A stretch of 13,230 bases of DNA from an archaeon (GTDB lineage: Archaea > Iainarchaeota > Iainarchaeia > Iainarchaeales > CSSED10-239), in contig JBAWVI010000017.1 in assembly GCA_037147375.1 (NCBI GenBank), positions 1 to 13,230 of the forward strand, given 5' to 3'. This document shows, one piece after another, positions 2,531 through 10,415 of this stretch. Position 1 is the stretch's first letter, and each line of letters starts with the position of its first letter. The notes below the pieces were generated by a model, which did no database searches, had not been told where the DNA came from, and saw nothing but the letters and a program-made list of their open reading frames with translations. The translations under genes were made by a program, and so were the position numbers.

Positions 2531-2538
2531 AAATATCA

Positions 2539-2571
2539 ATACCTATAAATATATCGAACATACCTATAAAT
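2539..2571 (-). promoter_or_regulatory. Two copies of a 12-bp direct repeat (plus strand ATACCTATAAAT, minus strand ATTTATAGGTAT) spaced 21 bp apart just upstream of alaS. Candidate tandem TATA-box promoter elements.
   Basis: Exact repeat at 2539-2550 and 2560-2571. Read on the minus strand each contains TTTATA. The proximal copy ends 9 nt upstream of the alaS ATG (2530), so it sits close to the start codon. This would fit a short or absent leader. Confidence 0.35.
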
Positions 2572-2619
2572 TATACTTAATATATAAGATAAATAAGTAT
2601 TTAAAGATATATTTTAGGG

Positions 2620-3645
2620 TTAATCATATCTTATTGGCTTAGCTTTTACTTTCTTTCTTAATTTGTTTAATAGATACTCTTTGTTTTCATCTACAATTTG
2701 AGAAATTTCTTTTTTTCTTTCCATTAATAAATCATAAATGAAGATACTAAATTTATTATAATCTTTAGAATTTTGTAATCTTTCAAGAAGGTTAATATAC
2801 CTGTTTCTGTTATTAAGATTAATTATTACTCTAGGAAATCCATTATCCATAAGAATAAGATTAAGTAGTTCTCTTCCTGTTCTTCCATTTCCATCAGAAA
2901 AAGGATGAACACTTTCAAAGAAGATGTGTAGATAACTTGAAAGTTCGACAGGATAAACCTGGTCTTTATTATTTGAATAATAATCCATAAATTCATTCAT
3001 AAGTTCTTGAACCCTACTTGCATTAGGTGGGAGATAACTTGAACCAGTAAGATATACAGGCTCTGTTCTATATTTTCCTGGATGTTTCTCTTCAAATGTA
3101 TACAGAACTTCTTTATGAATATTTTTAATTAATTTTTCAGTTAATTTTTGTTTTTTTGAAAATATTTTCTGTTTAACGTTCTTTAAATTTATTATTTCTT
3201 GAATTTCGTATACTTGTTTTCCTTCAATTGCTATTCCTTTATCCATTACCAATGCAGTTTCCAATAATGATAAAGAATTTCCTTCAACTGATGCACTTCC
3301 TTGTGCAAATCTTACATATTCATCTTTATCAAAAGATTTAAATCCCTCTTTGAAATATCTTTTAAATAATAGATAATCATATCTTAGTTTTTCAAGTTCT
3401 ATTATTTCCATAGTGGATAATACTTCTGGTTTTCTTTTTTGAAGAACAATCTTTGATGCTTCAATCCCTATTTTATTTCTAAGATCAATAAATGCTTTAT
3501 CTAATGCTTCTTTTGATTTTGGGTCTGATAAGTACACACTTATCTTCCTTCTATCACCATATAAGTTGATAGTTTCCTCAAGATAATAATATTTTTTATC
3601 AGAAATAATTCTTTTGTTTATGAACACAATGTAATTAACCCTCAA
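2620..3645 (-). CDS. Fic-domain protein (Fic-1) with the canonical AMPylase-type motif and an N-terminal inhibitory-helix motif.
   Basis: 341 aa ORF. Core Fic motif HPFSDGNGRTGR matches HxFx(D/E)GNGRxxR. The upstream segment SASVEGN matches the (S/T)xxxE(G/N) auto-inhibitory motif of class II Fic proteins. The annotated start is TTG at 3645. A GTG at 3627 is an alternative, and there is no ATG in the first ~78 codons. Confidence 0.85.
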   Translation of the reverse strand: MRVNYIVFINKRIISDKKYYYLEETINLYGDRRKISVYLSDPKSKEALDKAFIDLRNKIGIEASKIVLQKRKPEVLSTMEIIELEKLRYDYLLFKRYFKEGFKSFDKDEYVRFAQGSASVEGNSLSLLETALVMDKGIAIEGKQVYEIQEIINLKNVKQKIFSKKQKLTEKLIKNIHKEVLYTFEEKHPGKYRTEPVYLTGSSYLPPNASRVQELMNEFMDYYSNNKDQVYPVELSSYLHIFFESVHPFSDGNGRTGRELLNLILMDNGFPRVIINLNNRNRYINLLERLQNSKDYNKFSIFIYDLLMERKKEISQIVDENKEYLLNKLRKKVKAKPIRYD

Positions 3646-3688
3646 AATGTTTAAAAATAGATGTTTTTAGATAATTGAGGGTTAATTA
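3632..3688. promoter_or_regulatory. Perfect 14-bp inverted repeat (TAATTAACCCTCAA, 29-nt spacer, TTGAGGGTTAATTA) spanning the Fic-1 start codon and upstream region.
   Basis: Arms at 3632-3645 and 3675-3688 are exact reverse complements. The spacer is AT-rich with a TATA-like run (minus strand CTATTTTTAAACA). The proximal arm contains the TTG start and the first four codons of Fic-1. The element begins 16 nt after the stop of the upstream Cys-rich gene. Confidence 0.5.
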
Positions 3689-3703
3689 ATTTTAAATTAA
3701 TAA

Positions 3704-4042
3704 TTATATATTACCAGGAACTGTAAGTAAAGGTTCACATTTATTATTTACACAATTAATTCCTTGCAATTCCATGCAACTATAAACACAACCTTTTATC
3801 CCTCCATTGTACTTAGATATCAGGCTACTTATCCTTATTTCTTCATTTTTATTTATTAATATAGAACACCCAAATGGGCATGAGGGCCCTACAGATATAC
3901 AGTCCTCTTTTACAGAACAATAGTTTGCTTTGATGATTTCTTTACTAACTTGTTTCTCTGTTGGACTAAATTTATATAAGATAAACCCTATGCTTAAAAC
4001 AAGGATTGTTACTATTAATAAAATAATAAATTTTTTCTTCAT
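3704..4042 (-). CDS. Small membrane-anchored 8-Cys protein, paralog 1 of 4 (P1), unknown function.
   Basis: 112 aa. MKKK followed by a ~20-residue hydrophobic segment, then the scaffold C-x5-C-x6-CPFGC-x25-C-x3-C-x7-C-x4-C. GGAG Shine-Dalgarno-like sequence (AAGGAGAGAGAATT) directly before the ATG. Conserved with three neighbouring paralogs. Confidence 0.8.
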   Translation of the reverse strand: MKKKFIILLIVTILVLSIGFILYKFSPTEKQVSKEIIKANYCSVKEDCISVGPSCPFGCSILINKNEEIRISSLISKYNGGIKGCVYSCMELQGINCVNNKCEPLLTVPGNI

Positions 4043-4067
4043 AATTCTCTCTCCTTTATTATTATAA

Positions 4068-4391
4068 TTAATCCAAATTCCAAATACATTTTCCAGTTAT
4101 ACACCCAAAATTTTTTATTGGTCCGCAATCATAAGCACAACCCTCATTATTTACATAATAGCGTGTAATTAATTTTTGTATTCTTGTTTCTTCATTTTTA
4201 TTAATTAATATATTACATCCAAATGGGCAAGCACCTAATTTTGCACTACAATCCTCTTTTACAGAACAATAGTTTGCTTTGATTATTTCTTTATTAATTT
4301 GCTTTTCTGTTGGACTAAATGCGTATAGGATAAATCCTATAATTAAAATAAGGATAGTCGCAATTAACACAAAAATAAATTTCTTTTTCAT
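4068..4391 (-). CDS. Small membrane-anchored 8-Cys protein, paralog 2 of 4 (P2), unknown function.
   Basis: 107 aa with the same architecture and Cys spacing as P1. About 58 of the first 78 residues are identical to P1 by my hand alignment, and the C-terminal third diverges. AAGGAGAT lies upstream of the ATG. Only 25 nt separate it from P1. Confidence 0.8.
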   Translation of the reverse strand: MKKKFIFVLIATILILIIGFILYAFSPTEKQINKEIIKANYCSVKEDCSAKLGACPFGCNILINKNEETRIQKLITRYYVNNEGCAYDCGPIKNFGCITGKCIWNLD

Positions 4392-4420
4392 TTTATTTCA
4401 CTATCTCCTTAACCTTGTTT

Positions 4421-4438
4421 ATATCCACAAGAACTTCT
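4421..4438 (-). repeat. Shortest remnant of the hisS 3' end (18-bp core), between P3 and P2.
   Basis: ATATCCACAAGAACTTCT matches hisS 6407-6424 at 17 of 18 positions. A further fragment, ATTTCACT at 4395-4402, may correspond to CTTTCACT of hisS, with the P2 Shine-Dalgarno sequence inserted between them. The flanking sequence 4439-4465 parallels 4879-4905. Confidence 0.6.
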
Positions 4439-4464
4439 AATTAATAGTTAATAGATTATTTAAC

Positions 4465-4797
4465 CTAATTTTGAGGAACACACTTATTATCTACACAAGC
4501 TATACCTTTTAACTGAAGACAGTTATAAACACAAGTACTAAAACTAAGTTTGTTTTTATGGTATTCAGAAATAAGGTCACGTATTCTTGTTTCTTCATTT
4601 TTATTTATTAATATCGTACATCCAAATGGACAAGATCCACCTATATGTGTACAATCATCTGATATGGAACAAAAATTTGCATTTTTTATTTCCTGATTTA
4701 CTTTTTTTTCTGATGGACCTGTACAAAATAAAAATATTAAAACACCAATTATAATAACTATTGTTGCGATTAACAAAAATACACATTTCTTTTTCAT
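4465..4797 (-). CDS. Small membrane-anchored 8-Cys protein, paralog 3 of 4 (P3), unknown function.
   Basis: 110 aa. C-x5-C-x6-CPFGC-x28-C-x3-C-x7-C-x4-C. AAGGAGAATAAGT lies before the ATG. It ends at TAG where P4 has TGG, and both then read GTT AAA TAA. Confidence 0.8.
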   Translation of the reverse strand: MKKKCVFLLIATIVIIIGVLIFLFCTGPSEKKVNQEIKNANFCSISDDCTHIGGSCPFGCTILINKNEETRIRDLISEYHKNKLSFSTCVYNCLQLKGIACVDNKCVPQN

Positions 4798-4844
4798 ACT
4801 TATTCTCCTTTTAATTTTTATAAATCTTTATTATTATTTATTAC

Positions 4845-4878
4845 ATCTTTCACTTTATCAATATCTACAAGAATTTCT
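4845..4878 (-). repeat. Remnant copy of the 3' end of hisS (about 34 bp), between P4 and P3.
   Basis: 4845-4878 matches 6391-6424 at 32 of 34 positions (ATCTTTCACTTTATC.ATATCTACAAGAA.TTCT). Confidence 0.8.
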
Positions 4879-4895
4879 AATTGATGATTAATACA

Positions 4896-5252
4896 TTATT
4901 TAACCCAATGTTGAGGAACGCATTTATTATCTACACAATTTATACTTTTAAACTGAGGACGGTCATAAACAGGACAATCATAAACACAAGTACTAAGACT
5001 AAGTTTATTTTTATGATATTCAAAAATCAGATCACGTATTCTTGTTTCTTCATTTTTATTTATTAATATTGTACATCCAAATGGACAAGATCCATCTATC
5101 TGTAGACAATCATCTGATATGAAACAAAAATTTGCATTTTTTATTTCTTGATTCACTCTTTTTTCTGATGGACCTGTACAAAATAAAAATATTAAAACAC
5201 TAATTATAATAACTATAACAGCAATTAGTAAAAATACACATTTCTTTTTCAT
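4896..5252 (-). CDS. Small membrane-anchored 8-Cys protein, paralog 4 of 4 (P4), unknown function.
   Basis: 118 aa. 83 of the first 93 residues are identical to P3 by hand alignment. The loop between Cys6 and Cys7 is 12 residues (PVYDRPQFKSIN) against 7 in P1-P3. AAGGGAGATAAATT lies before the ATG. Confidence 0.8.
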   Translation of the reverse strand: MKKKCVFLLIAVIVIIISVLIFLFCTGPSEKRVNQEIKNANFCFISDDCLQIDGSCPFGCTILINKNEETRIRDLIFEYHKNKLSLSTCVYDCPVYDRPQFKSINCVDNKCVPQHWVK

Positions 5253-5298
5253 AATTTATCTCCCTTAAATTTTTATTGATAATTTTTATTATTTATTA

Positions 5299-5360
5299 TA
5301 TCTTTCACTTTATCAATAGACACAAGAACTTCTTCTCCACTCTTCATGTTCTTTATTTGT
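5299..5360 (-). repeat. Remnant copy of the 3' end of hisS (longest copy, about 62 bp), between Fic-2 and P4.
   Basis: A hand alignment of 5299-5360 against 6390-6451 gives 52 of 62 identical positions. Translated on the minus strand it reads IKNMKSGEEVLVSIDKVKDI, against the HisRS C-terminus IKNMKSGEEVLVDIDKVKDILK. It overlaps the Fic-2 stop codon (5353-5355). Confidence 0.85.
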
Positions 5361-6294
5361 TTATAAAATATTTTACTTGTCCTAAATATTGTTTATAACT
5401 AAATTCAGCAAATTCTTTTGGATTATTTTTTTCTACAGCACTAATTAATGATTTAAAATACTCTCCTTTTTTATCTGAAATATTTAACATTGGAAAGTTA
5501 GAATCAACCAATACTTTATTAAAAATTAATCTACAAATTCTTTTATTTCCATCAAGAAAAGGATGTATCATATATAACTTATAATGAGAGATAACTGCTT
5601 TTTCAAGTGGATTCAATTCAGTTGTATTATACCAATCAACAAAATTAATTAATTGCTTAGTGATATCTATATAATTTGGAGGTTGATAATTAAGTTCTCT
5701 TCCAAGAGGATGTTTTTGATCTGTTTGGATCAAATGAACTGGTCTTACTCTAAACATACCTGGTGTTTTTGTCTCAAACTCAGCCATTGTTGTTCTGTGT
5801 AATTTTTTTAAAAAATCAATTGTTAACTCTATATTACTATTTGAAACAAGGTTAACTGCATCAATCATATTCTTACAAATAATTTCTTCCCTACTTAAAT
5901 TAGATTTATTTTTATATGCATTTTTTACATCTTGAATATTTATATCTACATCTTCTGTTGTTAGTGTGGTTAAGGTAAATAAGATTATAGAATCTATTTT
6001 AAACTGCTTCTGCTTAATAGGGGATAAGGTATTATATTTTTTTATAAAAAAATTTCTTAAAATTATGGTTTTAATCACATCTTCTAAATTATACAGATTA
6101 GATGTATAATGTTCTTGAGAAACCTTGTAAATCACGTTATCATAAAAAGTTAATATTAGTTTTTTAAGTTCATTAGAAGATGGTTTTTTAAGTCCTATAT
6201 ATTTACTAAAATGAACTTGTTTATCTAAAACCCTAAATTTTAATTCTAAGTAATAATATATTTTATTATTTACTTTCTTAACATCTAATTTCAT
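5353..6294 (-). CDS. Fic-domain protein (Fic-2), a divergent paralog of Fic-1 with a Doc-like NKR variant of the core motif.
   Basis: 313 aa. Core motif HPFLDGNKRICR has Lys in place of the second Gly. The N-terminal KIYYYLE segment and the TPGMFR segment align with KKYYYLEE and HPGKYR of Fic-1. The position equivalent to the inhibitory motif reads TLTTED (Glu kept, G/N replaced by Asp). Confidence 0.8.
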   Translation of the reverse strand: MKLDVKKVNNKIYYYLELKFRVLDKQVHFSKYIGLKKPSSNELKKLILTFYDNVIYKVSQEHYTSNLYNLEDVIKTIILRNFFIKKYNTLSPIKQKQFKIDSIILFTLTTLTTEDVDINIQDVKNAYKNKSNLSREEIICKNMIDAVNLVSNSNIELTIDFLKKLHRTTMAEFETKTPGMFRVRPVHLIQTDQKHPLGRELNYQPPNYIDITKQLINFVDWYNTTELNPLEKAVISHYKLYMIHPFLDGNKRICRLIFNKVLVDSNFPMLNISDKKGEYFKSLISAVEKNNPKEFAEFSYKQYLGQVKYFINK

Positions 6295-6299
6295 AGATA

Positions 6300-6375
6300 A
6301 TTAGGGCAACAAACAGTTTATAAAATGTTGCCCTAATACTTAGGGCAACAAATTAATTTACAAAAGATGCCCTAA
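6300..6375. promoter_or_regulatory. Pair of inverted repeats built from four TTAGGGCA half-sites between the hisS stop and the Fic-2 start. Candidate operator/promoter for Fic-2, terminator for hisS, or both.
   Basis: IR1 is ATTAGGGCAACA (6300-6311), a 14-nt spacer, then TGTTGCCCTAAT (6326-6337), perfect over 12 bp. Its spacer contains TTTATAAAA. IR2 is TTAGGGCA (6340-6347), a 20-nt spacer, then TGCCCTAA (6368-6375). The 13-nt direct repeat TTAGGGCAACAAA occurs at 6301 and at 6340. IR1 ends 6 nt from the Fic-2 ATG, and its TATA-like spacer is centred about 25-30 nt upstream of that ATG. Confidence 0.5.
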
Positions 6376-6378
6376 ATT

Positions 6379-7677
6379 TTATTTTAGAATATCTTTCACT
6401 TTATCTATATCTACAAGAACTTCTTCTCCGGACTTCATGTTCTTGATCTTTATCTTATTTTGCTTAACTTCATCTTCACCTAAGAGACCAACAAATGGAA
6501 TTTCTGACTTATTTGCGAAATCCATGTTCTTTCCAATTGCTCTTCCTAAGAGATCTACCATAGTTTTTATTCCTTGGCTTCTTAGTGTTTGTGTTATCTC
6601 TATTGCTTGCTTCTCTGTTTTAATTGGAATAATATAAAGATCAGCTGTTGTTTCCTTAACCATTCCATCTCTTGCTTTAATTATCTCCATAATTGGCTCA
6701 AGTCCAAATGCAACTCCAACTGCAGGATAAACCCTATTCTCATCTTTTAGATATTTACCTATCATCTTATCCCATCTTCCACCACCAGCAATTGAAACTG
6801 GAAGAATAGATTCTTCTTTTAAGAAAACTTCAAAGATTGGGCCTGTATAATATCCAAGACCTCTTGCAAGGGAAGGAAGGAAAACATATTCTGTATTAAA
6901 TTTATTTAGATAATTAAAAAGTTCAGTTAATTCTTTTATTCCATCTGTTTCTCCTATAACTTTTTTAATATTATTTAGCTTTTCTTGATTGTTTCCTTTA
7001 ACTAAAAGAATATCAAGAATCTTATTTATCTTATCCTCTGATATTTCTTTTTCAAGAAGTTCTTTAGTTACTCCAACTCTACCAACCTTCTTTAGCTTAT
7101 CAATTGTAATAATTGTTGTTGTTTGATAATCTTCTGGAATTTCTACAAAACTTAGAATATCTGAAAGAAGTTTTCTTGAAGAAACTTCTATGTTTACATC
7201 AAGCTTAAGTTCTTTAAACACATCTGAGACAAGAGCTAGTATTTCTGCATCTGCAATCATTCCGCTTGCACCAACAGTGTCCACATCACACTGGTAGAAC
7301 TCTCTATATCTCCCTGCTTTTATAGGTCCATCACGAAAAACAGGGCCTATCTGATATCTTTTAAATGGTAATCTAGTTTGAGGGTTCATTCCTATGTATC
7401 TTGCTAGAGCAAATGTAAACTCATATCTTAACCCCAAATCTCTATCTCCTTGGTCTTTAAATCTATATATTTCAGAGATAGCATCGCTAGCTTCTCCAGC
7501 TCCAAACTTAGCTTCCAAGATATCTAATCTTTCAACAGTTGGAGTCTCAAGAGGAGAGAAAGCATATATTTCAAAAACATTCTTTATCTTTGCAATAACA
7601 TAATCTCTAAGTATTTTTTCAGCAGGAGAGAAATCTCTAAATCCTTTAGCTAAATCAAGTTCAAAATCTTTTTCCAT
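6379..7677 (-). CDS. hisS: Histidyl-tRNA synthetase.
   Basis: 432 aa. Class II motif 2 region FRDGPIKAGRYREFYQCDVD, the HisRS-specific LARGLGYYTGPIFE, and a C-terminal anticodon-binding domain (DLYIIPI...GIKTMVDL...IPFVGLLGEDE). Confidence 0.93.
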   Translation of the reverse strand: MEKDFELDLAKGFRDFSPAEKILRDYVIAKIKNVFEIYAFSPLETPTVERLDILEAKFGAGEASDAISEIYRFKDQGDRDLGLRYEFTFALARYIGMNPQTRLPFKRYQIGPVFRDGPIKAGRYREFYQCDVDTVGASGMIADAEILALVSDVFKELKLDVNIEVSSRKLLSDILSFVEIPEDYQTTTIITIDKLKKVGRVGVTKELLEKEISEDKINKILDILLVKGNNQEKLNNIKKVIGETDGIKELTELFNYLNKFNTEYVFLPSLARGLGYYTGPIFEVFLKEESILPVSIAGGGRWDKMIGKYLKDENRVYPAVGVAFGLEPIMEIIKARDGMVKETTADLYIIPIKTEKQAIEITQTLRSQGIKTMVDLLGRAIGKNMDFANKSEIPFVGLLGEDEVKQNKIKIKNMKSGEEVLVDIDKVKDILK

Positions 7678-7743
7678 AATTTAATTCATCTCTTTTATCT
7701 TATTTATTTAGGTTATAAAAACAATTAAAAACCATTGTTTTAA

Positions 7744-7817
7744 GGGTCCGAACCGGGATTCGAACCCGGGTCCTAAGATCCACAGTCTTAGATGCTAACC
7801 ACTACACAACTCGGACC
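7744..7817 (-). tRNA. tRNA-His (anticodon GUG) with genome-encoded G-1.
   Basis: The minus strand folds by hand into a cloverleaf. G-1, then acceptor GTCCGAG/TTCGGAC, D stem GTGT/GCAT with a GG loop, anticodon stem TAAGA/TCTTA with loop CTGTGGA (GTG), T arm CCGGG-TTCGAAT-CCCGG, and C73 opposite G-1. No encoded CCA. Confidence 0.9.
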
Positions 7818-8173: not shown

Positions 8174-9397
8174 TTAACCAAAGAATATTGGTCTTTGGCT
8201 AATTAACTTTGATACTGGTAGTGAACGATATGGCATACCATTACAAATTTTTTTTATTTCCTTTTCTAATTCTTCTTTTCCCATTTCTTTTTTAATTCCG
8301 TTTTCTCTTACGTTTACCATATATTTTCCAGAAGATATTTCTTTATCTCCAATCACAATAACATACGGCACCCACTCCTTGCTTGCTTTAACAATTTTCT
8401 TTCCAAGACTATCCTCACTATCATCCAAATCATATCTAATCCCTTCTAAATGAATAGATTTGCAATAATCAACTTGAGCTTGAGACACAGGTATGATTCT
8501 AACTTGAGAAGGGCATAACCAAAGTGGTAACACTGGTTTTTCTTTTTTTAAGGATTCTTCAAATATTGAATACATCCATCTTTCAATACTTCCAATACTT
8601 GAATGGCAGATAATACATCCTTTCTTGCTACCATCATTATCCACATAGTTAATTCCATATATTCCTGCATCTTTAATATCCAATTGAACAGATGATAGTT
8701 GCAAGTTACCTCCAACACTATCTATTCCTTGGAATTCATGCTTAACAACCCAATAGTGCTTCATATCAGATAATAGTTCTATGAAAGCTGGCTTATTAGA
8801 ATATTTAACTAATTCTAATATCTTGTTTTTATGCTCGTTATAAAAGCTTTCAACAACTCTAAAGACAATAGCATATTTTACTCCTACTTCATTAGCAAGA
8901 TCTGAATAATTTCTATAAAGATTTTGATATTCGTCCCATCCTTCTTCTACATCCTTACAAAAACTATGAATGTCTGGCATATGAAATGATCTTAGTCTCT
9001 TAAGTCCAGATAGTTCACCATGCTTTTCATACCTAAAGCTTTTTGAAAACTCATAAACTCTTATTGGAAGCATTTTATAACTAAAGTTTGCATCTTGCAT
9101 AATCTTAAATAAACCAAAATCTCCTGCAAATCTTAAGATATATTTTTCATTATCATTATCAGGCACCTTTACAATATAATGTCTCTCATGAAATGATCCA
9201 GCTTGCTCTTGAATTTCTTTATCATTCCAGTTATATATTATTGGAGAATCAATTTGTAAAGATTTCAATCTATTTACTGCAATCTCATATGCCCAATCTT
9301 TTAATAAATCAAAAATCAACTTTCCTTTTGGATACATTCTAAAATGCCCAGAATCACTTGAAGATTCATAATCAACTAATTCATGTTGTTGCATCAT
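8174..9397 (-). CDS. thrS: Threonyl-tRNA synthetase, archaeal type: catalytic core plus anticodon-binding domain (the main body of a disrupted gene).
   Basis: 407 aa. HELVDYESSSDSGHFRMYPKG, FRYEKHGELSGLKRLRSFHMPDIH (class II motif 2 region), CHSSIGSIERWMYS (motif 3 region), and C-terminal PLWLCPSQVRIIPVS...VPYVIVIGDKE (anticodon-binding domain). This frame is open upstream to 9433 and there reads RDNLEKHPPSIKMM, with no earlier start codon and no Shine-Dalgarno sequence. Confidence 0.9.
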   Translation of the reverse strand: MMQQHELVDYESSSDSGHFRMYPKGKLIFDLLKDWAYEIAVNRLKSLQIDSPIIYNWNDKEIQEQAGSFHERHYIVKVPDNDNEKYILRFAGDFGLFKIMQDANFSYKMLPIRVYEFSKSFRYEKHGELSGLKRLRSFHMPDIHSFCKDVEEGWDEYQNLYRNYSDLANEVGVKYAIVFRVVESFYNEHKNKILELVKYSNKPAFIELLSDMKHYWVVKHEFQGIDSVGGNLQLSSVQLDIKDAGIYGINYVDNDGSKKGCIICHSSIGSIERWMYSIFEESLKKEKPVLPLWLCPSQVRIIPVSQAQVDYCKSIHLEGIRYDLDDSEDSLGKKIVKASKEWVPYVIVIGDKEISSGKYMVNVRENGIKKEMGKEELEKEIKKICNGMPYRSLPVSKLISQRPIFFG

Positions 9398-9398
9398 T

Positions 9399-9599
9399 TT
9401 AATTGAAGGTGGGTGCTTCTCTAGGTTGTCCCTTTATTTCCTCTGATAAAATATATGCTTTAAGTTCAGGATTATTAATCTTTGCTAGATCTTCTTTATT
9501 ATCTTTATTAAATTCCATCTCTGACCCATCAGGACTTAAAATAATTGATTTATGCATTACACTTTTATTTATTTCATCTCTATTTTTTATTGAATTCAT
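9399..9599 (-). CDS. thrS: N-terminal 66-codon segment of thrS, in a different frame from the body (a +1 shift is needed to join them).
   Basis: A strong Shine-Dalgarno sequence (AAGGAGAGATAAATT) lies directly before ATG 9599. The ORF ends at TAA, one nt before the ATGATG of the 407-aa ORF. Together they would give about 470 aa, the size of an editing-domain-less ThrRS. Confidence 0.65.
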   Translation of the reverse strand: MNSIKNRDEINKSVMHKSIILSPDGSEMEFNKDNKEDLAKINNPELKAYILSEEIKGQPREAPTFN

Positions 9600-9967
9600 A
9601 ATTTATCTCTCCTTAATTTTTATTTTCTTGTTTTTTTTGTTTATTTATATAAAATATATTGATATCTAATCTTTATAATATTAGATTAGGTAACTTACTT
9701 CTCATTTTAGGATTATTTACAAAAATAAAGATTACCAGTCTCTTAATGAAAATAATTATTTCTAATGGTAAGATAGGCCTTTAGAAATGAACTAGAGAAG
9801 TAATATTTAATTGGTTGTGGTGATACTTAAAGAAACAGATATGAGTTTATTTATTTTATTATTAATTTTAAATCTCATTTTATATCACCTTTAGTTTATA
9901 CTAATATTATGTAAAGATTAGTTTTTAAATATTATGAACTTGAACTGTCCAAGATATATAACAAACT

Positions 9968-10189
9968 CTATTTTAAATACTCTAAAAATTCTTCTTTTGT
10001 AAGCTTAGAAACTTTAATAATCTGTAAAACAGTTCCAATCTTTAAAACTTTGTGATTTGGAACAACAATTAAATCCCCTTCTTGATTTTTAAGAATAATA
10101 TGACTGCCTTTTTGTCTAATTATATGATAATCTAATTTATTTAATACAAAAAGTATATCCTTTACAGATATATTCTTTAATTCAGACAT
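9968..10189 (-). CDS. hicA: HicA-family toxin (mRNA interferase).
   Basis: 73 aa. RQKGSHIILKN...VVPNHKVLKIGTVLQIIK matches the HicA signature (GSH ... P.H ... GT...I.K). Its start overlaps the stop of the upstream hicB by 8 nt (AATGTCTGA). Confidence 0.85.
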   Translation of the reverse strand: MSELKNISVKDILFVLNKLDYHIIRQKGSHIILKNQEGDLIVVPNHKVLKIGTVLQIIKVSKLTKEEFLEYLK

Positions 10190-10415
10190 TAATAGGCACT
10201 TCTGTTTGTTCTAAATAAACTGAAGATAACAATTCTTTTAATTTTTCTTTATCAATTTCATTGATGTACAAATCTATAGCTTCTGTAATGTTTTGCATTG
10301 CTTCTTCTTTAGTATCGCCTTGTGATATACATCCTGGTAATTGAGGAACATAAACTGTATATCCACCTTCTATCTGTTTTTCAAAAATTACATCTATCTT
10401 CATAACATCACACAT
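10182..10415 (-). CDS. hicB: HicB-family antitoxin (UPF0150-like, N-terminal domain only).
   Basis: FEKQIEGGYTVYVPQLPGCISQGDTKEEAMQNITEAIDLYI is the typical HicB partial RNase H-like fold signature. The start is either ATG 10415 or ATG 10403 (MKIDVIF...). There is no appended RHH/HTH domain. Confidence 0.8.
   Translation of the reverse strand: MCDVMKIDVIFEKQIEGGYTVYVPQLPGCISQGDTKEEAMQNITEAIDLYINEIDKEKLKELLSSVYLEQTEVPINV

Follow-up and report, generated by a model that had tools for sequence, protein, structure and literature searches.

At the Rhs, CdiA and type VI secretion system (T6SS) toxin loci of bacteria, an intact gene is followed by dissociated fragments of its own 3′ end, which vary in length and each keep the gene formerly found behind them. 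In these arrays the newest unit adjoins the intact gene, the displaced tips match tips still attached in other strains, and no integrase is found. A circular intermediate and homologous recombination were proposed for the displacement of Rhs C-termini (Jackson et al. 2009, PMC2935791), and homology-facilitated illegitimate recombination for the effector-immunity arrays of T6SS (Kirchberger et al. 2017, PMC5361080). A layout with all these traits is found at hisS, the gene for histidyl-tRNA synthetase (HisRS), in a 13,230-nucleotide (nt) stretch of DNA from an archaeon of the order Iainarchaeales (contig JBAWVI010000017.1 of assembly GCA_037147375.1), hereafter called the window. There, three further copies of the hisS 3′ end lie among small cargo genes in the gap between hisS and the alanyl-tRNA synthetase gene alaS. 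The copies probably arose at a flexible islet, through displacement of the 3′ end driven by homology, together with one unequal crossover.

Several differences separate this locus from the toxin arrays. The anchor is a housekeeping aminoacyl-tRNA synthetase (aaRS) gene and not a polymorphic toxin gene, the tip is the conserved 14-26 codon end of the HisRS anticodon-binding domain instead of a variable toxin domain, the cargo consists of Fic proteins and small Cys-rich membrane proteins that are not known immunity genes, and the host is an archaeon of the DPANN type (named after Diapherotrites, Parvarchaeota, Aenigmarchaeota, Nanoarchaeota and Nanohaloarchaea). The displacement layout of bacterial toxin loci thus appears able to arise on an ordinary housekeeping gene, both the archaeal host and the anchor gene hisS being unusual for this kind of process. 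Gene flow is poorly understood in DPANN archaea, which have tiny genomes and few recorded mobile elements. In this regard, the locus offers a readable record of how accessory genes may be added beside an essential gene without damage to it, with empty, intermediate and stacked states found in relatives.

Other systems share part of this organization. Integrative and conjugative elements (ICEs), integrative mobilizable elements (IMEs) and cis-mobilizable elements (CIMEs) inserted at gene 3′ ends also bring a replacement 3′ end with the incoming DNA, are flanked by gene-end repeats, can form insert-repeat-insert arrays and may target the end of an aaRS gene. Streptococcal ICEs, for instance, use the 3′ end of lysS with repeats of 13-17 bp (PMC4701971), so that an aaRS 3′ end as attachment site, which the original prediction held to be unusual, is not without precedent. 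Unlike these elements, the locus has no integrase that could be found, its cargo is made of single genes of 0.4-1.1 kb, its repeat borders vary, and a related event at the hisS 5′ end involves unrelated sequence. In Neisseria, minimal mobile elements (Saunders & Snyder 2002, as cited in PMC1797815; also PMC3787668) hold alternative cargo of one to a few genes, often related to defence or to the cell surface, which occupies one syntenic site between conserved genes without mobility genes and is exchanged by homologous recombination in the flanks. All of this resembles the present case, except that the cargo of the classical elements is swapped, whereas here it is added and displaced gene ends are left behind. 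Integron cassette arrays likewise stack single-gene units beside a fixed entry point, newest first, but their separators are attC hairpins and not unstructured coding relics of hisS, and the present locus has neither IntI nor attI; an integron was excluded, as no attC-like structures and no IntI are present.

Every gene of the locus lies on the minus strand, and the transcription order is thrS, tRNA-His, hisS, two palindromic units, a gene for a Fic-domain protein (Fic-2), four genes of one small family (P4, P3, P2 and P1), a palindrome, a second Fic gene (Fic-1) and alaS. The genome is AT-rich (GC 28%) and intergenic spacers measure 20-100 nt throughout; the GC content of the cargo (23-29%) is mildly below that of the core genes (30-32%), a gap that is not diagnostic. 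The hisS product is identical to the protein labelled histidine--tRNA ligase in the source record, and its closest counterpart among species representatives (65% amino-acid identity) belongs to a metagenome-assembled genome (MAG) of Candidatus Diapherotrites. The members of the array are the following, in transcription order:

6379..7677, minus strand: hisS, intact, 432 amino acids (aa), short-tail allele ending ...VLVDIDKVKDILK and stop; Pfam tRNA-synt_His (3e-36) and HGTP_anticodon
6379..6444, minus strand: reference copy of the repeated hisS 3′ end, from K411 to the stop; holds the 17-nt block GATAAAGTGAAAGATAT, the putative crossover zone
5353..6294, minus strand: Fic-2, Fic-domain protein of 313 aa, apparently the newest cargo, adjoining hisS; Pfam Fic 9.7e-18, PADLOC SoFic 1.9e-24
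5273..5353, minus strand: rem1, putative displaced hisS 3′ end of 81 nt, extended-tail type, KNMKSGEEVLVSIDKVKDIINNKNYQ and stop; from repeat search and alignment
4896..5252, minus strand: P4, small membrane-anchored Cys-rich protein of 118 aa
4818..4877, minus strand: rem2, putative displaced hisS 3′ end of 60 nt, extended-tail type, EILVDIDKVKDVINNNKDL and stop; near the functional tail ...DVINNKKDL and stop of relative L097
4465..4797, minus strand: P3, 110 aa, 90% identical in nucleotides to P4 and to the single P gene of L097
4393..4437, minus strand: rem3, putative displaced hisS 3′ end of 45 nt, short-tail type, EVLVDINKVKEIVK and stop; the stop overlaps the P2 start as TAAAATG
4068..4391, minus strand: P2, 107 aa, in a subgroup with P1 and the Pa protein of L095 (57-62% aa identity)
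3704..4042, minus strand: P1, 112 aa
2620..3627, minus strand: Fic-1, 335 aa, GTG start, canonical motif HPFSDGNGRTGR; putative resident cargo, common to relatives L082, L088, L094 and L097
1..2530, minus strand: alaS, partial, conserved right-hand anchor of the islet

The existence of extra hisS tails, put forward in the original prediction, was borne out: three accompany the intact end, and none is expected by chance. A repeat search returned a family of four members at 6383-6447 (hisS), 5292-5356, 4837-4901 and 4397-4461, the first two being 85% identical, and the degenerate 29-nt core TTCTTGTNNNNATNGATAAAGTGAAAGAT matches at 6391-6419, 5300-5328 and 4845-4873 (0.00 matches expected from 200 shuffles). 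When the 80-nt hisS tail was compared by blastn-short with the following 5 kb of the window, the E values were 5e-12, 8e-11 and 3e-4. The same comparison at 72 further hisS loci of diverse genomes gave only noise of 13 nt, at a rate equal to that of a mid-gene control segment. The core GATAAAGTGAAAGAT is perfectly conserved in hisS, rem1 and rem2, and rem3 is without it. The identities first counted for the three copies (52/62, 32/34 and 17/18) and the translation reported with them held on re-check, although two other details did not. The third copy, described as an 18-bp core, is a 45-nt tail that keeps frame and stop, and the reported decrease in length does not continue from rem2 to rem3. 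Both begin at the same hisS codon, and the apparent shrinkage thus reflects divergence and not truncation.

The sequences of the remnants can be compared with the ends of functional alleles. Close hisS relatives (88-94% aa identity) were located on their own contigs and 12 related hisS-alaS loci were examined (L001 is assembly GCA_964445425.1, L092 is ERZ4201038 and L093 is GCA_005795785.1). All three remnants are open hisS C-termini that reach a stop, with zero indels and zero premature stops. In L097, an intact hisS ending ...VLVDINKVKDVINNKKDL and stop is followed 20 nt later by a P gene 90% identical in nucleotides to P3 and P4; its extended tail is the type seen in rem1 and rem2, and both rem1-P4 and rem2-P3 are collinear with it. 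In L095, hisS ends ...VKDIVR and stop, and the stop overlaps the start of the P gene as TAAAATG, the same overlap found at rem3-P2. Moreover, rem1 differs from the L082 allele at 4/57 positions and from the window's own hisS at 8/57, and rem2 and rem3 differ from each other at 10/36. Nucleotide differences between the remnants and their nearest functional alleles comprise 10 synonymous and 14 nonsynonymous changes, a synonymous proportion equal to that among functional alleles (0.41) and twice the neutral expectation (~0.2; p = 0.024), in a test of moderate strength only, as the hisS C-terminus is itself variable and half of the divergence may sit on the functional branch. Altogether, the allele matches, the coding-like pattern and the intact frames suggest that the remnants diverged as working gene ends in different lineages, with no decay in place, which supports their reading as displaced 3′ ends of earlier or foreign hisS alleles. 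The displacement of old 3′ ends postulated in the original prediction is thereby supported: the extended tail has a counterpart in L097, the TAAAATG overlap has one in L095, and rem1 shares codons with L082. Downstream of the intact hisS, the order rem1 (81 nt)-P4, rem2 (60 nt)-P3 and rem3 (45 nt)-P2-P1 is that of a displacement array, in which the dissociated tips match the attached tips of other strains (L097, L095 and L082).

The left borders of the remnants reveal two kinds of junction, whose positions are counted from the stop of the short hisS allele. At the first one (J1), the stop codon of Fic-2 is joined to hisS at -62, the first base of rem1 being the last base of that stop codon and rem1 continuing collinearly with the extended hisS-P junction of L097. 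The second one (J2) occurs in two copies, after P4 and after P3, where the end of the P gene plus 18-27 nt is joined to hisS at -42. The left sides of both copies are listed here:

4878..4895, minus strand: flank after P4, apparent relic of the spacer between P and Fic-1, with the left arm of the palindrome of Fic-1 (TTAATCATCAATTA), left side of J2; from alignment
4438..4464, minus strand: flank after P3, homologous to the P4 flank and, in L097, to the spacer between P and Fic-1 with the left palindrome arm (20/27 positions, compared by eye)

In L097 the homologous sequence is the spacer between P and Fic-1, with the left-hand arm (TTAACCCTCAATTA) of the Fic-1 palindrome in it, and the P4/rem2 and P3/rem3 junctions share GGTTAAATAATNTATTAA..AATTA/GAARTTCTTGT. 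Because the two J2 copies are homologous they would go back to one event, and with J1 separate from it, two independent illegitimate joins are indicated, not three. Thus, the original prediction of serial independent integrations is not sustained for all units: the P4/rem2 and P3/rem3 boundaries appear to be one junction that was duplicated, and only the Fic-2/rem1 boundary is independent of it. Unequal crossover between tail copies could have produced the P4/P3 pair, or else a single pre-formed unit may have been used again. A copy of the palindrome arm lies on each side of the block rem3-P2-P1, an arrangement that would fit either an origin by tandem duplication or a circular unit closed at J2. 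The palindromes and Fic-2 are flanked by direct repeats of the hisS 3′ end (6379-6444 and rem1, 5273-5353). Left borders of the repeats vary from -62 (J1) to -42 (J2) and -24 (relative L100), in a comparison of three events only.

A comparison with relatives indicates that the array is one of several states of the same gap. In L182 the gap is empty, hisS and alaS lying 159 nt apart, and in L082/L083, L088-L091 and L094 it holds Fic-1 only, to which L097 adds one P gene. The gap of L095/L096/L099 contains P, P′ and a 253-aa gene, followed by Methyltransf_33 and radical S-adenosylmethionine (radical-SAM) genes on the opposite strand; L084-L087 have the Methyltransf_33 and radical-SAM genes only, and L183 has a 208-aa gene with a Methyltransf_33 gene. 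The full array of Fic-2, four P genes and Fic-1 is shared by the window, L001 and L092. Among the loci examined, seven different gap contents are thus found between the conserved hisS and alaS anchors, without mobility genes. The hotspot claimed in the original prediction is consistent with this polymorphism, as is the check in relatives that it proposed: an empty site (L182) and other cargo exist, and the array is not fixed in all relatives. On this sequence comparison, the hisS-alaS gap is to be seen as a small flexible islet in a DPANN-type archaeal lineage. As a separate observation, the second P-like gene of L095 and L099 repeats 34 nt (33/34 identical), running from the hisS stop codon through the start and signal-anchor codons of the first P gene; in L095 the copies are at 9298-9331 and 9643-9676, another unit boundary at the hisS end.

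Signs of recombination are found at several points of the locus. Across 3547 nt of Fic-1 and alaS, L097 matches L082 at 99.6% identity, in hisS at only 91%, and L097 has the extra P gene, so that recombination between lineages ends at the hisS stop; variants of the two types co-occur in one sample (L083 and L098). Between the window and L092, 33 of the 46 mismatches cluster at 1184-1748, a patch of ~560 nt of alaS with 6% divergence that looks like an imported recombination tract. On the other side, the tRNA-His region is 95.8% identical to L084 and the adjacent hisS and upstream blocks 88-89%, a contrast which indicates that the upstream flank is mosaic too. Taken together, the alaS patch and the tRNA-His mosaic indicate that homologous recombination is active on both flanks.

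The two tail copies flanking Fic-2 were also submitted to a reciprocal-chimera test. When the left part of rem1 and the right part of the hisS tail are joined at GATAAAGTGAAAGATAT, the resulting sequence differs from the L082 allele at 3/66 positions, as against 8/66 for the present hisS tail; the complementary chimera stays near the extended type, with 8/60 differences to rem2 compared with 10/60 for rem1. Such a pattern is expected if an L082-like tail came in and crossed over once, reciprocally, with a resident tail of the extended type; it lends this event modest support, because informative sites are few. For the addition of Fic-2, the replacement of the gene end by an incoming one, as envisaged in the original prediction, would fit, since the two copies look like reciprocal recombinants of two parental alleles.

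Similar insertions at other hisS genes are also bordered by repeats of the gene end. In L100, hisS (ending ...TTVGIDKIKSVVK and stop) is followed by two palindromic units, a Fic-2 homologue (70% aa identity), a 23/24 copy of the hisS end and a third palindromic unit. That copy sits right after the Fic stop, beyond the third unit lies the gene for a BsaWI-type restriction enzyme, and the 24-nt repeat (L100:177-200 and 1231-1254) shares no sequence with the core found in the window. In L093, a conspecific with ~99% identity in which the Fic-2 end of the array is also present, a gene of the Ham1 family (184 aa) is inserted after codon 4 of hisS (L093:4461-5087, corresponding to window 7667-7704), which constitutes a presence/absence polymorphism within the species. 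The Ham1 insert is flanked by a perfect 38-nt direct repeat, AATAAGATAAAAGAGATGAATTAAATTATGGAAAAAGA, comprising the hisS leader, the start codon and the first codons; with these elements in the repeat, Ham1 would borrow the start of hisS, and hisS would be restored by the second copy.

These observations can be accommodated by the reading regarded above as probable. Gene modules that bring along the conserved final 40-80 nt of hisS would join next to hisS by recombination anchored there; hisS would gain a new end, and the old end would move downstream, taking along the gene that follows it. We favour one reciprocal crossover with a putative circular unit made of a hisS end and its cargo, because this best fits the chimera pattern and the exact repeats, and one homologous plus one illegitimate join of linear DNA would have the same outcome. 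As for the order of events, we infer a resident hisS(short tail)-P2-P1-Fic-1, to which an extended-tail hisS end and a P3-type gene would have been added, as a unit whose break fell within the left arm of the Fic-1 palindrome and whose join to hisS lies at -42 (J2). This unit would then have been duplicated to P4 and P3 by unequal crossover between tail copies, and an L082-like hisS tail with palindromes and Fic-2 would have come last (J1). Host homologous recombination is the likely engine, rather than a dedicated integrase. An excised circle would be recognizable by the joining of the rem1-left signature (AGTGGAGAAGAAGTTCTTGTGTCTATT...GATAT) to TCTAAAATAAAATTTAGGGCA, and an empty site by that of the hisS-left signature (TCCGGAGAAGAAGTTCTTGTAGATATA...GATAT) to AATAAATAATAAAAATTATCAA-P4. 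The remnants may survive in a compact genome as 5′ leaders of the P genes, with a ribosome-binding site and probably a promoter. In this regard, GGAG is found 7-8 nt before the starts of P4, P3 and P1, and 13 nt before that of P2, inside rem3, where two rem3-specific changes (AAA GAT to AAG GAG) create it.

Other histories for the array have to be confronted with the same evidence. That an assembler concatenated strain variants of the hisS-P junction is conceivable for metagenome-derived contigs whose repeats are 90% identical, and is nonetheless barely credible: the array was recovered from GCA_964445425.1 and ERZ4201038 at 99.5-99.85% identity (99.85% for contig CAYUKR010000007.1 of the former), at least two other assemblies from other samples thus carrying it, with 0 mismatches to L092 across 2531-6378, and the units differ by 10-30%, enough for unambiguous assembly. 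A purely local history would start with one illegitimate event that duplicated the hisS tail and a P gene in tandem, continue by further unequal crossovers and divergence in place, and receive Fic-2 later, with nothing imported from other lineages. The homologous P4/rem2 and P3/rem3 junctions agree with it, as do the regular spacing of the units (440-455 nt), the similar divergence of rem2 from rem3 (10/36) and of P3 from P2 (70% nucleotide identity), and the fixation of the array, 100% identical, in conspecific assemblies. Yet rem3-P2 and rem2-P3 copy two native hisS/P junction types, intact in L095 and L097 respectively, the remnants keep frame, stop and coding-like substitutions, rem1 resembles the L082 allele more closely than the hisS of the window, and the L097/L082 pair reveals replacement between lineages ending at the hisS stop; Fic-2, only 26% identical to Fic-1, is no local duplicate. 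A history without imports is accordingly quite unlikely. The original prediction had offered as its alternative an unequal crossing-over followed by insertion of Fic-2; the crossing-over has its counterpart in the homologous novel junction of two units, but not all units and junctions stem from one duplication, as the Fic-2/rem1 junction differs and two native junction types are present.

Site-specific accretion would invoke integrase-less cassettes of the CIME or IME kind, inserted by a recombinase encoded elsewhere that acts on a core in the hisS 3′ end and regenerates attL and attR at each insertion, as at tRNA genes or streptococcal lysS. Direct repeats of the target-gene 3′ end do flank Fic-2 both in the window and in L100, the core GATAAAGTGAAAGAT is perfect in hisS, rem1 and rem2, the tail copies have a reciprocal hybrid make-up, an empty site exists (L182), and the use of aaRS 3′ ends as att sites has a precedent (PMC4701971). 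Against these points, no recombinase domain was detected by Pfam in any window open reading frame (ORF) or in the 16-kb locus L001 (~24 kb of genome seen), which agrees with the absence of an integrase noted in the original prediction; borders vary between events (-62, -42 and -24), rem3 is without the core, the L100 repeat is unrelated to the core of the window, and at the hisS 5′ end, in unrelated sequence, a comparable insertion is flanked by repeats too. Moreover, three scans of viral contigs (hisS-tail pattern, P family and Fic-2) returned no match and no sign of a viral or plasmid-like carrier there, Fic-2 is without near-identical copies elsewhere (nearest 70%), and the remnant regions fold no better than shuffled sequences (z = -1.35, 0.29 and -0.66), by which remnants acting as attC-like or terminator hairpins were rejected. 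The dedicated site-specific system of the original prediction is thus not borne out, the missing recombinase, the varying borders, the unstructured remnants and the 5′-end insertion all speaking against it, and such accretion appears unlikely. Finally, larger segments with a whole second hisS might have been inserted and then pruned by deletion to what the expression of the P genes needs. This would explain why remnants run from the preceding stop codon to the ribosome-binding site or start of the next gene, why spacers remain at 20-100 nt throughout, and why GGAG lies upstream of all P genes, inside rem3 in the case of P2. On the other hand, at least two events per layer would be required, neither the reciprocal-chimera pattern nor the perfect 38-nt (L093) and 23/24-nt (L100) repeats are predicted, and no intermediate with two hisS genes was seen in the 12 related loci, which makes import followed by pruning very unlikely.

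The displacement by homologous recombination proposed here faces objections of its own. The circular form is hypothetical, as are a donor genome and a route of transfer, the crossover block offers just 17 nt of perfect identity, a short homology for recombination, and a sliding-window comparison of the window's hisS with six alleles gave no left-hand break point. The chimera test rests on ~8 informative bases, and its pattern would also arise by site-specific crossover or by later exchange between copies. Both Fic-2 junctions fall exactly at the Fic-2 stop, which would need a strong deletion pressure or a more precise mechanism, and a recombinase acting in trans from beyond the ~24 kb of genome seen is possible.

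A broader proposal, which we advance tentatively and consider doubtful, is that single-gene cassettes are exchanged without any integrase. Small circles, in which one gene is combined with 20-80 nt from the end of an essential gene (for hisS its 3′ end, or its 5′ end in the case of Ham1), would loop out between flanking repeats and re-enter other genomes by a single homologous crossover. If so, the conserved termini of housekeeping genes would act as portable attachment sites, building cassette arrays in streamlined DPANN genomes. Such a model, if true, would also provide a simple and general route to cassette-like variation in genomes without integrons and most of the machinery of mobile elements.

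The Fic genes are associated with palindromic elements:

6301..6375, minus strand: two tandem 36-nt palindromic units, IRa (6340-6375) and IRb (6301-6336), TTAGGGCAACA..TGTTGCCCTAA; from repeat search, DNA fold z = -4.8
3635..3685, minus strand: Fic-1 palindrome, TTAACCCTCAA-N29-TTGAGGGTTAA, around a TATA-like box; DNA fold z = -5.2

IRa and IRb each enclose a TATA-like A/T box just upstream of Fic-2 and, as homologous units (TTAGGGTAAC..GTTACCCTAA) precede the Fic-2 homologue of L100, they may constitute a promoter/operator module travelling with Fic-2. The Fic-1 palindrome is kept directly after hisS in the relatives with Fic-1 only, and its left arm is the break point of J2. The TATA-like boxes inside the Fic palindromes lie ~25-30 nt ahead of the start codons, and the palindromes look like operator-promoter modules for leaderless transcripts, whose arms change together with the Fic subfamily (TAGGGTAAC/GTTACCCTA in L100). 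Both Fic proteins match the PADLOC SoFic model (3.5e-35 for Fic-1 and 1.9e-24 for Fic-2), and an origin of Fic-2 as a recent duplicate of Fic-1 was rejected on their 26% identity. The Fic-2 subfamily (~312 aa) is widespread in DPANN MAGs and has the motif HPFLDGNKRxxR in 18/18 aligned members, a Lys replacing the second Gly of the canonical motif seen in Fic-1. The nearest relative of Fic-2 is 70% identical, and the Fic gene has relatives under the names Candidatus ainarchaeum, Aenigmarchaeota and Micrarchaeota. A metagenome scan with the Fic-2 family alignment retrieved distant Fic genes only (22-40% identity), the pattern IHPFLDGN being too generic.

The P proteins form a small family (42 database hits) whose members begin with a membrane helix at the N-terminus and have a domain in which 8 Cys are invariant. 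They have no Pfam or PADLOC match, and a confident AlphaFold model (predicted local distance difference test, pLDDT, 88; predicted template modelling score, pTM, 0.70) found no fold match in the PDB at E <= 0.001. No hisS remnant is present in the P2-P1 interval. As a whole, the cargo looks related to defence or to the cell surface.

Upstream of hisS the neighbourhood is variable as well. A tRNA-His gene (GTG anticodon) at 7744..7816, minus strand, lies directly upstream of hisS and is part of the mosaic flank; an Rfam scan found two tRNAs and nothing else. Its allele, shared by the window and L084, differs clearly from those of L082 (6280-6360), L088, L094 and L095 by many stem changes, and its 3′ flank also differs by a 60-nt indel. 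Further upstream, thrS (8174-9397) encodes 407 aa with the class II core and the anticodon-binding domain and without the N-terminal editing or TGS region, and a 66-aa ORF (9399-9599) terminates 1 nt ahead of its start. In L001 there is a 100-N gap within thrS, and in L084 and L095 thrS is missing at the corresponding position and other genes are found instead. A HicA/HicB toxin-antitoxin pair at 9968-10415 is present in most close relatives; in L084 the HicB-like gene is shortened to 62 aa with no HicA call, which suggests a partial loss there. A histidine theme runs through this neighbourhood, beginning with the tRNA-His beside hisS. Histidine ammonia-lyase is a member of the aromatic amino-acid lyase family, and Methyltransf_33 is the family of the EgtD histidine methyltransferase. 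The variable slots of relatives contain a gene of the aromatic amino-acid lyase family together with one for a CN-hydrolase, and a Methyltransf_33 gene together with a radical-SAM gene, at L084:3293-5598, L084:6958-8692, L095:11014-12790 and L183:8984-9922.

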